Source: Haliangium sp. (GTDB taxonomy: Bacteria; Myxococcota_A; Polyangia; Haliangiales; Haliangiaceae). Taken from it: DNA of 64,000 nucleotides. The position numbers were made by a program, and so were the translations under genes. The notes under the pieces are model-generated. The model saw nothing but the letters and a program-made list of their open reading frames with translations. It did not search any database and was not told the origin of the DNA. Below, piece by piece: positions 28,792 through 37,750 of the stretch. The stretch is taken from the NCBI RefSeq assembly GCF_050303215.1, contig NZ_JBNLBH010000019.1, forward strand, positions 64,001-128,000, read 5' to 3'. Each line of letters begins with the position of its first letter. The stretch's first letter is position 1.

Positions 28792-29388
28792 ATGAGGTGC
28801 ATCCTGGCGGTGATGGCGCTCGTCTCGTGGAGCGCGTGCGGCGGCGCGCCGCCGCCGAATTACGACTACAGCAAGGAACCCGATCCGCGTCAGGACGAGT
28901 ACGTGTTCGGGGTCGCCGACTCCCTCGACATCAACGTGTGGCGCAACCCGGACCTGTCCACGCGGGTGACCATCCGCCCGGACGGCACCATCACGATGCC
29001 GCTCATCGGCGATCTGCACGCGGCCGGGGTCACCCCGAGCCAGCTCAAGAAGCAGATCGAGGCCCGGCTGGCCGAGTACATCAAGCTCGAGGGCACCGAG
29101 ATCACGATCGCGGTCACCAACGTGGCCAGCTATCACTTCATGGTGAGTGGCGAAGTGGGGGCCCCGAATGTCTACACCTCGGCCTATTACGTCACGGTGG
29201 CCGAGGCCATCGCGTTGGCGGGCGGGTTCTCGCGCTTCGCCAAGCGCGACCGCATTCGCCTGATGCGGCGCGACCGCGAGACCGGGGAGGTGCGCAACAT
29301 CCCCATCGATTACAACTTGATCGAGAGCGGCGCGCGCCCGGAGATGAATCTGGTCATCTTGTCCGACGACTCCCTGTACGTGCCCTAG
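28792..29388 (+). CDS. Polysaccharide export protein, short Wza-like periplasmic lipoprotein (Poly_export + SLBB domains) lacking the C-terminal OM helical barrel
   Basis: The lipoprotein signal is MRCILAVMALVSWSACGG. The Poly_export motif is EYVFGVADSLDINVW...RPDGTITMPLIGDL. An SLBB-like segment is GEVGAPNVY. The protein is about 198 aa, so it is too short to carry the Wza D4 helix. Confidence 0.8.
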   Translation: MRCILAVMALVSWSACGGAPPPNYDYSKEPDPRQDEYVFGVADSLDINVWRNPDLSTRVTIRPDGTITMPLIGDLHAAGVTPSQLKKQIEARLAEYIKLEGTEITIAVTNVASYHFMVSGEVGAPNVYTSAYYVTVAEAIALAGGFSRFAKRDRIRLMRRDRETGEVRNIPIDYNLIESGARPEMNLVILSDDSLYVP

Positions 29389-29442
29389 TCCCGATTCCTG
29401 CCGAATCGCGCCGGCCCTTTCGCCCGCCGATGGGCCGCGGGC

Positions 29443-30174
29443 TCAGCGCCCGGAGCCGCGGATCATCGTAATCGGGGTCTTGAACAGGATCTTGAGCTCC
29501 ATCGCCAGGTAGCTGCTCAACCGCTCGGTGGCGGCGGCGTAGGCGAGGTCGTACAGCAGCTTGATGCGCATGTCGTCGGCGACCGCGCCCTCGGCCTCCT
29601 CGAGGTCGAAGGGGTTCTGCAAGGTGCCGGCGAAGGACTCGATGGCGCTGCCCTCGGGGATGTCACCCAAGTAACCCAAGGACACCTGGGCCAGGCCGGT
29701 GATGCCGGGCTTCATGCCGCGCATGCGCTCCTCGAAGAAGGGGATCGCAAACGACAGGTCCTGGAGCAGCTCCGGCCGCTCAGGGCGAGGTCCGACCAGG
29801 CTCATGGTGCCGCGCAGGACCTCGAAGAGCTGGGGTAGCTCGTCGAGCCTGGTCTTGCGCAGGACTCGTCCTACTCGGGTGACCCGTGGATCACCCTTGC
29901 TGGCCAGCACGGCGCCGGTGTGCTTCTCGGCGTCGGTCCGCATGGTGCGGAACTTGTGCATGTGGAACTCGTTGAACTGCAGGCGCTTGATCCCGTCCTC
30001 CACCGTGACCGAGCGCAGGGTGCCGGCCCGCCGCTGGCGGTAGAAGATCGGCCCTCGGTCGTCCAGGTAGATGGCGGCCGCGATGACCGGGAACGCCGGA
30101 GCGGTCAGGCTCAGGCCGGCCAAGGCGCCACAAATGTCGATCGCTCGCTTGGTAATGCGGACGCTCAGTCGCAT
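29443..30174 (-). CDS. Polyprenyl-phosphate sugar phosphotransferase (bacterial sugar transferase, ExoY/WbaP C-terminal type)
   Basis: The 243-aa product is a small PHPT. It has conserved RTMR, GPRPER and [10 protein letters not shown] motifs. Confidence 0.85.
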
Positions 30175-30216
30175 CGTACTCGCGAGCCTAACACAGAGGC
30201 GGCTCGGTCTGATAAC

Positions 30217-35364: not shown

Positions 35365-36295
35365 AACCAAGCGATTCGGACCCGACGTCAAGACCGTGGC
35401 CGACACCCAGGACATGCGCGCGACCGGGGGTCCGCGGCCGGCGAGCGACACCAAGCGGACCGTGGCGATGGCCGCGCTGGGAGAGATCTCGTCCGAGATT
35501 CTGACCGGCCGGACTGACTCCCGCCCGGGCAGCCACGGTAGCCCGAGCGGCGCCGACTCGACCATGATGTTGCAGCTCAACGACCTCGAGCTGCAACCGT
35601 CGGCGCTCCCGATGGACGAGGTCCGACAGCCGCCGGAGATCACGCTCACCGCGCACCAGCTCCCCCCCGGGGTTCCCCTGGATCCGCGCCTGATCCTGCT
35701 GGCCGAGGCGGACACGGACCGCGCCGCCGCCTTCCGTATCCTGCGCCACCACCTCATGGACCACGGCCGCCCCCAGGTCATCGTGGTGTCCAGCCCCAGC
35801 CCGGGCGAGGGCAAGACCACGTGCGCCGTCAACCTGGCCCTGGCCCTGGCCGAGTGCAACCGAGCCCGCGTGCTCCTGGTCGAGGCCACGGTGCGCCGGC
35901 CCCAACTCGCCAGCCTGTTTGGATTCATGCCGCCGTGGTGCTTCGCCGAGCAGCTCGCCGCGCACCGCCAGCAGCCGCTGCTGCCGTGGAGCGCCATGCA
36001 CCTGCCCGATCAGTGGCTGCACGTGGCGGCCATGAACCCCGGCCTCGATCAGCACCAGTTGCTCGACGCGCCCGCCTTTGCCATCGCCATGGAGCGCCTG
36101 CGCCTGGGCCGCTATGACCACATCGTCGTGGACGCGCCCGCGGTGCTGGGCAGCGCCGAGGTCAACCTGATCCAGGACGCGGCCGACGGCGTCATCTTGG
36201 TCGCGCGGGCCAAGCAGACCACCACCCGCATGATGCGCCGGGCGGTGGAGCAGCTCAGCCCCACCAAGGTCATCGGCACGGTCTTGCTGCGATAG
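35357..36295 (+). CDS. BY-kinase-like P-loop ATPase (CapB/Wzc cytoplasmic domain homologue) lacking a C-terminal Tyr cluster
   Basis: Walker A is [21 protein letters not shown], Walker A' is VLLVEAT and Walker B is IVVDAPAV. The protein ends ...IGTVLLR with no Tyr-rich tail. The proposed GTG start overlaps the PCP stop (GTGGCTGA). Confidence 0.6.
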
Positions 36296-36301
36296 CCGAA
36301 C

Positions 36302-37750
36302 ATGCGCCCTCACCGCTCCCGGAAGTCCATCGCACGCCCGGCCCCGCTCGCCTGCGCGCTGCTCGTGGCGGGCTCGTGGTCGCTGCTCGTGGCCCCGACC
36401 CACACCCACGCCGACCCCTACAGCGTGCACGCCGAAGGCGCCGTGGCCCTGGCCTGGACCGACAACGCGGCCAACCGCCCCGAGCTGGTCCAGGTCGCGG
36501 GCGAGAGCCTGCCCGAGGCGGGCTTCTTCACCCAGCTCCGGCCATCGGTCCTGTTCACGTACGAGCAGCGCCGAGCCGTGCACGTCAGCGCCGCCGCCCT
36601 CGATATCAACCTGTACGAGACCGCCGAGCCGTCCAACTCCTATAACGGCACCCTCTCGTACAACGGCCTGCTCCTGCTGTCACCCGTGAGCGAGCTCGGA
36701 CTCGGGGCCGCGCTCGGCTTCGGACGTGTCGATCCCCTCGATCTGGCCCAGGCCAACCAGGTGCAGGGCAACACGACCTTCGTCTCCACCGGCGTCACCC
36801 AGGACCTGCGCCGCCAGCTCAGCGCTGATCTGCGGGTGAACCAGGGCTTCGCCTACACCTTCGTGCGCACCAACCAGCCCACCTCGGTCGTCGATCCCAA
36901 CGATCCCGACGCCCCCGCCGAGCTCGTGGACAACTTCAGCCGGGCCCACAGCGTGAGCCTGACCTTGGGCGGCGATCGCACCTGGGCCCGCACTTCGCTC
37001 GGCCTGGTGGCCAACGTGAACTACGTCGGCGTCGACCAGAACGGCGACAACATCCAGCTCATCAATAATCTGTCCGCCAACGTCCGCCGCGACCTCGACC
37101 CCTTCTGGTCGGCGTCAGCCACCCTCGGCGTCGGGACCATCCACGTGCTCGAGCAGCCCCCGGGCATGGAGGGCGGCGACAGCTTCGGGATCACGCCCAC
37201 GGGCAGCCTGACGGCCAACTATCTTCGCCCCGTGGGCGCCGTGACCGCGAACCTGAGCGCTACCGTGGGCTACACCGTCACCCCCAACCTGCTGCTCGGC
37301 AACGTGACCAACACCGCCAACGGCGCGCTCAGCGCCAGCATCCCCCTGCCCTGGTTCCGGCGTGGCCCCGAGACCACAGTGACGGTGGCGAGCACGCTCG
37401 CGATGTCGCACTCGCGCCCCAGCCTGCAGGCGAGCGGTGATCCCACCTGGAACAGCTACACCGCCGATGGGGTCGTGAGCTGGGCGGCCCAGGAAGGCCT
37501 GAACGTGGCGCTGCGCTACCAGTTCGTGCGCACCGATGTGTTCTACGGCGACGAGTCCATGGCCACCGGCGACATCCAGCCCCCTGAGGACTTCTTCCGC
37601 CATACCATCCTGGTGGAGTTCAACGGCCGCTACCCGGCCCGCCCTGCAGCGCAGCTCCCCGATCGCTCCGGCCGACGCGTGGACCTGTCCAACGAGCAGC
37701 CGATCGGCAGCGACGGCGACCAACAGAACGAGCCCGGGCAGCGCCGGTAG
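36302..37750 (+). CDS. Outer-membrane beta-barrel protein, candidate OM partner of the short Wza-like exporter
   Basis: The signal peptide is [37 protein letters not shown]. Alternating amphipathic beta-strand patterns run through 480 aa. It is the last gene of the co-directional polysaccharide operon. Confidence 0.5.

Follow-up and report, generated by a model that had tools for sequence, protein, structure and literature searches.

Does the locus at positions 28792 to 37750 of this Haliangium sp. DNA (contig NZ_JBNLBH010000019.1; the whole 64-kb stretch that was analysed is referred to as the window) encode a polysaccharide export machine, and how might such a machine work when its parts are split among separate proteins and its kinase-like ATPase has no C-terminal Tyr cluster? 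The interval contains genes for a short Wza, two tandem polysaccharide co-polymerases (PCPs), a stand-alone ATPase resembling bacterial tyrosine kinases (BY-kinases), and an outer-membrane (OM) β-barrel protein (OMP), together with a polyprenyl-phosphate hexose-1-phosphate transferase (PHPT), a family 4 glycosyltransferase (GT4), an RsbW-like kinase, and a STAS protein (Table 1). From the family assignments across these nine genes, which were made with Pfam and NCBIfam and, for the short PCP and the barrel, from models, we think it likely that the interval holds the initiation, co-polymerase, and export genes of a Wzx/Wzy-dependent polysaccharide pathway, and that its module is conserved across Haliangiales and Kofleriaceae. 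An earlier, sequence-only reading of the window had proposed the split-part architecture. That architecture is real, but its novelty is lower than was implied, because both headline features, the composite translocon made of an OM polysaccharide export (OPX) protein plus a barrel and the BY pseudokinase, were published between 2022 and 2026. Distinctive here are the Walker-intact but Tyr-less ATPase, the short PCP with a CapA-type tail, the embedded partner-switching pair, and the placement of the OPX gene at one end of the locus and of the barrel gene at the other.

Genes were called by third-position G+C content (GC3) in the window, which has 69% G+C, and were cross-checked with gene calls made independently on an identical contig from Logan; the protein lengths of the locus genes agreed. 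Every element that had been listed before was present, each at its position. Among these were the PHPT and GT4 genes; the RsbW-like kinase and STAS genes inside the interval had not been mentioned. A scan of species-representative genomes found relatives of the ATPase in 118 genomes, nearly all of them Haliangium, Haliangiales, Kofleriaceae, or unclassified myxobacterial metagenome-assembled genomes (MAGs). For survey, 80 orthologous genomic loci were retrieved, and hidden Markov models built from the window genes and the first orthologues were run on their open reading frames (ORFs). Motif counts for the ATPase were taken from an alignment of the window protein with the 80 retrieved orthologues (81 sequences).

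The ATPase gene begins with a GTG that overlaps the stop codon of the long-PCP gene as GTGGCTGA, an 8-nt overlap that had been read correctly before. Searches of the PDB with phmmer matched its product to VpsO (E = 2.7e-14), BceF (5e-12), CapB (6e-8), Wzc (1.5e-5), and also Etk, and on sequence it is a BY-kinase homologue. The N-terminal ~120 residues are disordered. The protein has a Walker A motif, GEGKTT, and a Walker B motif, HIVVDAPA (VVDAP), that fit the BY-kinase consensus sequences GxxxxGK(S/T) and hhhhDxxP. In the alignment, G152 and T154 of Walker A were present in 81/81 sequences and K153 in 80/81, and D259 of Walker B was present in all 81. The third BY-kinase motif, Walker A′ (hhhhDxDxR with both Asp residues), was altered: the first acidic residue was Glu in 74 and Asp in 7 of the 81 sequences, and the second-Asp site (third position) was occupied by H, N, T, S, or C and in no sequence by Asp. 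In the EX2RX2R motif the Glu site was Ala in 80/81, and both Arg residues were invariant.

The Haliangium ATPase ends in ...IGTVLLR with no C-terminal Tyr cluster, as had been noted from its translation, and the whole protein contains one Tyr, which lies in neither the tail nor the N-terminal region. More than 1500 database proteins match the ATPase; the 120 matches listed all lack a Tyr tail, 119 of them having no Tyr in the last 25 residues, and all of the termini inspected among those matches ended one to four residues after G(T/S)hh. No Tyr was found in the last 30 residues of 75 of the 76 complete genomic orthologues. Loss of the tail through a truncation or a frameshift was considered and rejected, because the homologues share this end point and the barrel gene begins after a further 6 nt. 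The lack of a Tyr cluster thus survived re-evaluation of the start and stop codons and is not an artefact. Judged from these residues, the nucleotide site is strongly constrained, and the features for phosphorylating a Tyr tail are missing.

The BY pseudokinases EcpK, of Myxococcus xanthus, and HfsB have been described, and phosphorylation-independent PCP-2 systems were formalised in 2025 (PMC12004946). Like EcpK and HfsB, the Haliangium protein has a stand-alone BY-kinase fold without a C-terminal Tyr cluster and is paired with PCPs that lack a kinase domain; as in those systems, the cytoplasmic C-terminus of a PCP is the likely docking element. EcpK, however, has lost Walker A, A′, and B, and ecpK is not adjacent to epsV (PMC12004946). 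Because the Haliangium ATPase keeps essentially invariant Walker A and B motifs, its only losses being the Tyr tail and the second Asp of Walker A′ (only A′ was altered in the 81 sequences), it is a different variant. Its gene also follows two PCP paralogues rather than one and overlaps the nearer PCP gene by those 8 nt.

The two ORFs preceding the ATPase gene are paralogous PCPs, as shown by homology and by fold. The long PCP matched Pfam Wzz barely above the cut-off (26.2 vs. 25.5 bits) and is of the PCP-2 type, with transmembrane (TM) segments at about residues 39 and 464 of the ORF and a periplasmic coiled-coil region of roughly 400 residues. The short PCP had no match in Pfam or NCBIfam. 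A TM-count screen gave it two TM segments, and profile–profile alignment (hhalign) with the long PCP gave a match of 98.1% (E = 9e-14) over 183 columns. Its AlphaFold2 (AF2) model consists of TM1, an α/β base, a helical hairpin at residues 189–300, and TM2, and in a Foldseek search with this model the top 50 PDB matches were all PCPs (WzzB, Wzc, WzzE, KpsE, and FepE; best E = 4e-7). The sole match of the short-PCP profile to PDB sequences was a weak one to the CapA tail; the PCP fold was shown through the fold search. Both proteins thus have the PCP-2 arrangement, in which two TM helices flank a periplasmic α/β base plus a long helical hairpin, and the tandem PCPs of the sequence-only reading are borne out, the long one by its Wzz match and the short one by hhalign and the AF2/Foldseek result. 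Clustered at 50% identity, the short-PCP family falls into 607 clusters; its members are about 340–400 residues long, and it has no curated model. Neither PCP has a cytoplasmic domain, only a tail of ~60 residues.

In the CapAB structure of Staphylococcus aureus, a CapA peptide activates CapB, and its penultimate Phe contacts and stacks on the adenine. The short PCP has a conserved cytoplasmic tail after TM2, DSRVQDLEDVRRLGMPVLGHIPAFEGDSVGSL, with the family consensus DSR(I/V)HxxEDVRRLG.P.LGH(I/V)PxFxGDxVGSL. The GH(I/V)PxF element was present in 66 of 71 genomic orthologues, and most family members have no Tyr in this tail. When the tail alone was searched against the PDB, the three best matches were the CapA1 C-terminal fragment fused to CapB (4jlv, 2ved, and 3bfv). 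The long-PCP tail, VDDRIY...PV.VV.P, is more degenerate; the family form is DDR(I/L/V)Y...PV.VV.P, with one invariant Tyr. Like CapA and CapB, the Haliangium pair consists of a short membrane PCP with a matching C-terminal juxtamembrane peptide, beside a separate P-loop protein of the BY-kinase type. CapB has a DxD in Walker A′ and a Tyr cluster and autophosphorylates, whereas the Haliangium ATPase has neither of these features; furthermore, unlike S. aureus, Haliangium is a diderm and has a long PCP, an OPX protein, and a barrel in addition. From its tail sequence, we infer that the short PCP would dock onto the ATPase and activate it. The likely partner of the OPX protein is the long PCP, because its periplasmic coiled coil is much longer.

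Wza contains Poly_export (82.4 bits, residues 54–128) and SLBB (40.7 bits, residues 138–189; numbering of the 220-aa extended ORF) and no domain after SLBB, and its alignment with TIGR03027 reaches the last residue. Class-3 or D1D2 OPX proteins are those of ≤280 residues with only Poly_export (PES) and SLBB and with neither a Wza_C helix nor a GfcC domain. The 198-aa Wza has this composition and on its domains is a D1D2/Class-3 OPX protein predicted to be unable to span the OM, as had been claimed. Its N-terminus has a signal peptide with a Cys, MRCILAVMALVSWSAC, followed by GG, and is lipoprotein-type by inspection; in 20 of 20 distinct orthologues a hydrophobic segment ends in the lipobox residues (A/G/S)C. 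A Sec/SPII lipoprotein signal such as this one is found in about half of Class-3 members and is required for the function of WzaB. At the C-terminus (29368–29388), GD(S/A)L(Y/F)VP-COOH is common to all 20 distinct orthologues (19 loci). WzaB binds its porin through a C-terminal Phe-Phe motif (Phe203-Phe204) (PMC12819527); the aromatic L(Y/F)VP terminus is reminiscent of this docking motif, although the letters differ (FF in WzaB). Class-3 OPX proteins were found in 61/61 myxobacterial genomes examined (PMC9603273).

The last gene is predicted to encode an 18-stranded OM barrel. The 482-aa OMP has a signal peptide and, in the AlphaFold model, 18 strands, within the 16–18 strands of integral OM barrel partners, which agrees with the β-barrel assignment made earlier. 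It had no Pfam match and no NCBIfam match at E ≤ 0.01, and the family is restricted to Haliangiales. A conserved extension of ~37 residues (about 445–482; 37634–37750) follows the last strand, with P445, R447, A449, Q451, P453, R455, R459, V460, and D461 invariant or nearly so. This extension is unusual, because OMPs normally carry their β-signal at the C-terminus; a tail for docking in the periplasm is one possible role.

Composite translocons made of a D1D2/Class-3 OPX protein plus a barrel of 18 strands are known from 453 pairs in 10 phyla (PMC9601211) and include EpsY/EpsX, ExoA/ExoB, and WzaB/WzpB of M. xanthus (PMC9601211, PMC9603273, PMC12819527). The Haliangium locus resembles them in coming from a myxobacterial host and in encoding, besides an 18-stranded barrel, a lipoprotein OPX of ~200 residues that has a conserved aromatic C-terminus, contains Poly_export and SLBB alone, and lacks a helix to span the OM. 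It differs in gene arrangement: OPX and barrel genes are coupled within five genes (PMC9601211) and are adjacent in M. xanthus (3–65 bp), whereas in Haliangium the distance is eight genes (6.9 kb), from one end of the locus to the other. A further difference is the barrel family, for which no sequence match to a curated family was detectable. Of the bipartite Wza-plus-barrel architecture proposed earlier, both parts are present, but their genes are not neighbours. Orthology with the M. xanthus exopolysaccharide (EPS) pathway was considered and rejected: the equivalog scores for EpsY (97/320), EpsZ (96/800), and EpsE (75/400) were far below the cut-offs, so the locus is not that pathway.

In the 80-locus survey, wza and an OMP gene shared a locus only in the window and in three distinct related genomes (loci L005/L008, L007, and L031); one more case was locus L087 (GCA_029976255.1). 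The layout running from wza to OMP as in the window was seen in L005/L008, L007, and L087; L031 holds both genes. Distant members of the OMP family lay 1–6 kb from the ATPase gene in seven further loci, in varied arrangements. In most related loci neither wza nor an OMP gene adjoins the core, and in L047, a typical Kofleriaceae locus, no wza and no recognisable barrel gene stands beside it. A 434-aa ORF after the ATPase gene in L047 was considered as a barrel relative, but hhalign with the barrel profile gave no relationship; thus, most Kofleriaceae loci lack a recognisable barrel gene beside the core. Co-occurrence of OMP and short Wza in relatives was thus seen in those few loci. We conclude that, in the Haliangium clade, both structure and synteny support a pairing of the OPX protein with the barrel, and that this pairing is not universal to the module.

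The module itself was widely conserved. A seven-gene core of PHPT (on the reverse strand), RsbW-like kinase, STAS, GT4, short PCP, long PCP, and ATPase was complete and in the same order in 56 of the 80 Haliangiales and Kofleriaceae loci, PHPT having the same position and orientation in each. The remaining loci were mostly on truncated contigs, and a few held only the triad of short PCP, long PCP, and ATPase. The full nine-gene order, including the upstream pilin genes, recurred in L005/L008 (on a 2.6-Mb contig), and L007 was the same with no detectable GT4 gene. The locus tags of the H. ochraceum homologues (Hoch_0203, OMP; Hoch_0204, ATPase; Hoch_0206, short PCP) suggest the same gene order there. 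The intergenic gaps from GT4 to OMP are 20, 11, −8, and 6 nt, which fits a single operon; PHPT is the sole minus-strand gene of the locus. A promoter and terminator scan of 28500–39000 gave counts not above those of shuffled sequence. Among the 46 full-core loci with >2.5 kb upstream, 12 had a PilY1 gene and a cluster of three minor pilin genes upstream, and wza was present in 12/12; the same linkage was seen in L087. In the window, 144 nt separate the end of the pilin genes from wza, which is on the same strand; the NCBIfam matches of the pilins were to PilV, GspH, and HpsC-type families, below cut-off.

No Wzx (MOP flippase), Wzy, or ABC transporter gene was found in the 64-kb window by Pfam and NCBIfam searches of all GC3-supported ORFs plus the TM-count screen, which upheld the earlier statement that the window has neither Wzx nor Wzy. 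The evidence on pathway type came from L087, whose OMP is 44% identical to that of the window. The genes of L087 run from PilY1 and three pilins through Wza, PHPT, STAS, and the short and long PCPs to ATPase and OMP; there is no GT4 gene, and the gene for the RsbW-like kinase is apparently absent or degenerate. The stretch 11459–15217 of that locus has, directly after the barrel gene, genes for a MOP flippase (Pfam Polysacc_synt; NF007773, 98 bits vs. a cut-off of 273), a polysaccharide deacetylase, and an Acetyltransf_6 (FemAB-like) protein, and a Wzy_C gene lies 9 kb downstream (20836–21434). The TM screen recovered this true Wzx (9 segments), so its negatives elsewhere are meaningful. Searches by phmmer with the L087 Wzx, Wzy_C, deacetylase, and acetyltransferase gave no matches among the window ORFs and 86 other loci. 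Because Wzx directly follows the barrel gene in L087, the pathway is most likely of the ordinary Wzx/Wzy type. The module most likely serves a Wzx/Wzy-dependent pathway with its flippase and polymerase encoded elsewhere in most genomes, including that of the window; pathways of M. xanthus, too, are split over distant loci (PMC7310880).

The genes for initiation and its possible regulation lie between wza and the PCP genes. PHPT matched Bac_transf at 167 bits (TIGR03025 at 209 bits, below cut-off). GT4 matched Glyco_trans_1_4 (110 bits), Glycos_transf_1 (93 bits), and Glyco_transf_4 (73 bits); its best NCBIfam match was TuaC (160 bits, below cut-off). The RsbW-like kinase, encoded divergently from PHPT across a gap of about 42 bp, matched HATPase_c_2 (53.1 bits; cut-off 27.4) and the RsbW and SpoIIAB families of NCBIfam below cut-off. 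The STAS protein matched Pfam STAS (62.4 bits; cut-off 22.6) and TIGR00377 (57.6 bits; cut-off 53.45); it is a single-domain protein of the anti-sigma-antagonist type with a phosphorylatable IDSSGV (DSSG) motif. By sequence, then, this pair has the two components of a partner switch, an RsbW/SpoIIAB-type kinase and a STAS protein with a phospho-Ser motif. No PP2C or SpoIIE family match for a cognate phosphatase was found in the 64-kb window, and there was no sigma factor gene near the pair.

Partner switches are known from polysaccharide loci. SypE and SypA of Vibrio fischeri are encoded within the syp locus (PMC4517449, PMC10120452), and All4160 of Anabaena is a STAS–Bac_transf fusion in which the STAS Ser is phosphorylated by the RsbW-like kinase Alr3423, with HenR as the phosphatase (bioRxiv 10.64898/2026.04.08.717354). 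The Haliangium locus resembles these systems in that genes for an RsbW-type Ser kinase and for a STAS protein having a phosphorylatable Ser stand beside a Bac_transf gene in a polysaccharide locus. Unlike the All4160 system, its STAS protein, kinase, and PHPT are three separate proteins, with no PP2C or SpoIIE phosphatase in the window. By the Rosetta-stone argument, the cyanobacterial fusion and the conserved gene neighbours in Haliangium suggest that the STAS protein may act on PHPT.

Several observations weigh against the reading of the interval as one export locus of this type. Neither Wzx nor Wzy was found within 26–28 kb on either side in the Haliangium genome or within ±10 kb in the 80 surveyed loci, and the pathway type was assigned from one relative (L087) and from family analogy. 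Among full-core loci with >2.5 kb upstream, wza adjoins PHPT in only 17 of 46; in the window it stands downstream of the pilin genes, with which it may be transcribed, and PHPT, on the reverse strand, comes between it and the remaining plus-strand genes. An OMP-family match lay within 10 kb in only 8 of the 62 loci with >3 kb downstream, and in one MAG (GCA_022360315.1) the module stops at the ATPase gene and the OMP homologue (37% identity) is ~80 kb away beside lolA. In addition, the similarity of the short-PCP tail to CapA, which in the Haliangium protein covers the stretch VDSRVQDLEDVRRLGMPVLGHIPAF, is short, with E values of only 0.04–0.12.

Some of these observations would be expected if wza belonged to the PilY1/minor-pilin unit, in a pilus-linked secretion or surface-sensing role, and the barrel were a general porin that stands after the ATPase gene in Haliangium by chance, so that the two would form no translocon for this locus. 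The place of wza after the pilin genes on their strand, its separation from the PCP operon by PHPT, its presence in 12/12 loci with pilins, the core without adjacent wza in 29/46 loci and without an OMP-family match within 10 kb in 54/62, the OMP homologue beside lolA in one genome, and a weak match of one pilin to HpsC (a hormogonium polysaccharide pseudopilin) all agree with this. However, pilin genes are missing from five of the loci with wza, and wza shares the PHPT strand in four; 6 nt lie between the ATPase stop codon and the barrel gene, and distant members of its family lie 1–6 kb from the ATPase gene in seven further loci; and the conserved aromatic C-terminus of Wza parallels the porin-docking motif of WzaB. 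We therefore consider a separate pilin unit decidedly unlikely. An XrtA/PEP-CTERM exosortase-associated EPS locus was suggested by the best NCBIfam matches of Wza (TIGR03027), the long PCP (TIGR03007), and the ATPase (TIGR03018), since these XrtA families are the closest curated ones for all three proteins. XrtA loci also have a similar order of export protein, chain-length (PCP) protein, kinase-like ATPase, and OMP, and L087 adds a deacetylase and a FemAB-like acetyltransferase. Against this, the scores were 120 bits vs. a cut-off of 180, 116.5 vs. 278.85, and 80.2 vs. 230.65, respectively, and another was 181 vs. 393, all below the curated cut-offs; no exosortase family match was found in any window ORF; the barrel had no NCBIfam match at E ≤ 0.01; and the nearby 955-aa TPR protein is SgmX-like (520 bits, its best match, below cut-off) and not PrsT-like (77 vs. 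312 bits). Membership in this locus type is extremely improbable and was rejected on the score thresholds and the lack of an exosortase gene.

The other two alternatives concern the ATPase. It could be a catalytically dead BY pseudokinase of the EcpK/HfsB type, a pure scaffold with no functionally relevant ATP binding or hydrolysis; like those proteins, it stands alone beside PCPs that lack a kinase domain and has neither a Tyr tail nor the second Walker A′ Asp (PMC12004946). We regard this as rather unlikely. EcpK lacks all of the Walker motifs, whereas the GKT of Walker A and the Asp of Walker B were essentially invariant here in the 81 sequences. The tail of the partner short PCP also keeps the Phe that stacks on adenine in CapAB, and joint conservation of the Walker residues and this Phe is hard to explain without nucleotide binding. 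At the other extreme, canonical Wzc-type phosphorylation cycling would be retained if the target Tyr were elsewhere, in a PCP tail or another protein, or if a second, true BY-kinase acted in trans. The intact Walker A and B motifs, the acidic residue at the first Walker A′ position, and the invariant Tyr in DDR(I/L/V)Y of the long-PCP tail are in its favor, but it is very improbable. The second Walker A′ Asp, which is the catalytic base in CapB, was absent in 81/81 sequences, and the Glu of EX2RX2R was Ala in 80/81. Moreover, the single Tyr of the ATPase is in neither its tail nor its N-terminal region, Tyr is absent from the tails of most members of the short-PCP family, and searches of the window detected no phosphatase of the Wzb or CpsB type.

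Under the preferred reading, as a Wzx/Wzy-type initiation, co-polymerase, and export locus, the parts would act as follows. By family membership, the small PHPT would prime undecaprenyl phosphate and GT4 would extend the unit; the RsbW-like kinase and STAS protein would probably gate this initiation by Ser phosphorylation, as the cyanobacterial STAS–Bac_transf fusions suggest. Flipping and polymerisation would need Wzx and Wzy encoded outside the window. The two paralogous PCPs would form the scaffold in the inner membrane, with the coiled coil of the long PCP expected to reach the OPX protein and the CapA-like tail of the short PCP, with its invariant Phe, docking onto the ATPase and completing the nucleotide pocket. 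The ATPase would be a nucleotide-dependent scaffold or switch for PCP oligomerisation that does not cycle by Tyr autophosphorylation. At the OM, by analogy with EpsY/EpsX and WzaB/WzpB, the lipoprotein D1D2 OPX would form a periplasmic ring and pass the polymer to the 18-stranded barrel.

Table 1. Genes of the polysaccharide locus and of its upstream neighbourhood (positions in the window)
Feature	Position	Strand	Length	Evidence or remark
wza	28792-29388	+	198 aa	Poly_export + SLBB
PHPT	29443-30174	-	243 aa	Bac_transf
RsbW-like kinase	about 30217-30765	+	182 aa	HATPase_c_2
STAS protein	30927-31235	+	102 aa	STAS
GT4 glycosyltransferase	31320-32513	+	397 aa	Glyco_trans_1_4, Glycos_transf_1, Glyco_transf_4
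Short PCP (orfX)	32534-33769	+	411 aa	hhalign, AF2 fold; no Pfam or NCBIfam match
Long PCP	33781-35364	+	527 aa	Pfam Wzz
BY-kinase-like ATPase	35357-36295	+	312 aa	PDB phmmer
OM β-barrel (OMP)	36302-37750	+	482 aa	AlphaFold model
Three N_methyl (prepilin-type) minor pilin genes	26190-28647	+		Pfam N_methyl; listed as context
PilY1-like gene	22429-26115		1228 aa	FG-GAP + T4P_PilY1; upstream of pilin genes

The locus lies within a type IV pilus supercluster that occupies 21540–28647, 38942–41809, and 46554–55687. Downstream of the locus, on the minus strand, is the gene for the SgmX-like TPR protein; further downstream come genes for PilP/O/N/M, a sigma54 activator, and PilQ, a secretin of 1440 aa that has an AMIN domain. 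An ORF with a LuxR/GerE-type HTH follows the barrel gene (38113–38835, plus strand); its GC3 is of the coding type only in the 3′ half, its start is uncertain, and it was not detected downstream of the module in other loci. In L003 (GCA_016717005.1), a PHP-domain-like ORF with the motif HCHSxxSDG (4175–4984, minus strand) lies ~2 kb from an isolated triad of short PCP, long PCP, and ATPase genes; it could encode a CpsB-type phosphatase, which would be odd beside a Tyr-less ATPase. Elsewhere in the window are an insertion-sequence-type transposase ORF (HTH_21 + rve) near the left edge (1015–1767, plus strand); a MshEN-domain protein beside a zinc-ribbon/Pkinase/TPR protein in a stretch of 77% G+C (7893–11770, plus strand); a 520-aa membrane protein with three VanZ-like repeats, which besides TatC is the only multi-TM protein in the window (14247–15809, minus strand); and a 1062-aa Ser/Thr kinase fused to an nSTAND1 NTPase (57624–60812, plus strand).

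EcpK and HfsB raised the question of how PCP-2 proteins couple polymerisation to export without Tyr phosphorylation. The Haliangium ATPase family is a natural intermediate in this respect, having a BY-kinase fold with an intact and conserved nucleotide site and neither a Tyr tail nor the catalytic-base Asp. On its sequence features, the pair of ATPase and short PCP is a possible nucleotide-driven, phosphorylation-independent PCP switch, and it is a good system for asking whether ATP binding alone drives cycling of PCP oligomers. The PHPT, RsbW-like kinase, and STAS trio is a split version of the cyanobacterial STAS–PHPT fusions and offers an independent test of whether partner switching directly regulates polysaccharide initiation. 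The practical interest is moderate; these are environmental myxobacteria.

Taken jointly, these features might amount to a third way of running a PCP-2 machine in Haliangiales, neither the Tyr cycling of Wzc nor the dead scaffold of EcpK; we put this forward tentatively, as a possibility that we would not expect to hold in full. The CapA-type tail of the short PCP would be presented to a BY-kinase-derived ATPase that binds and hydrolyses ATP but has no Tyr substrate, and the nucleotide state alone would drive assembly and disassembly of a heteromeric ring of short and long PCPs. The regulatory input of Wzb/Wzc would have moved to an RsbW/STAS Ser switch acting directly on PHPT. If this were true, the linkage of the locus to PilY1 and the minor pilins would tie that switch to surface sensing by type IV pili.

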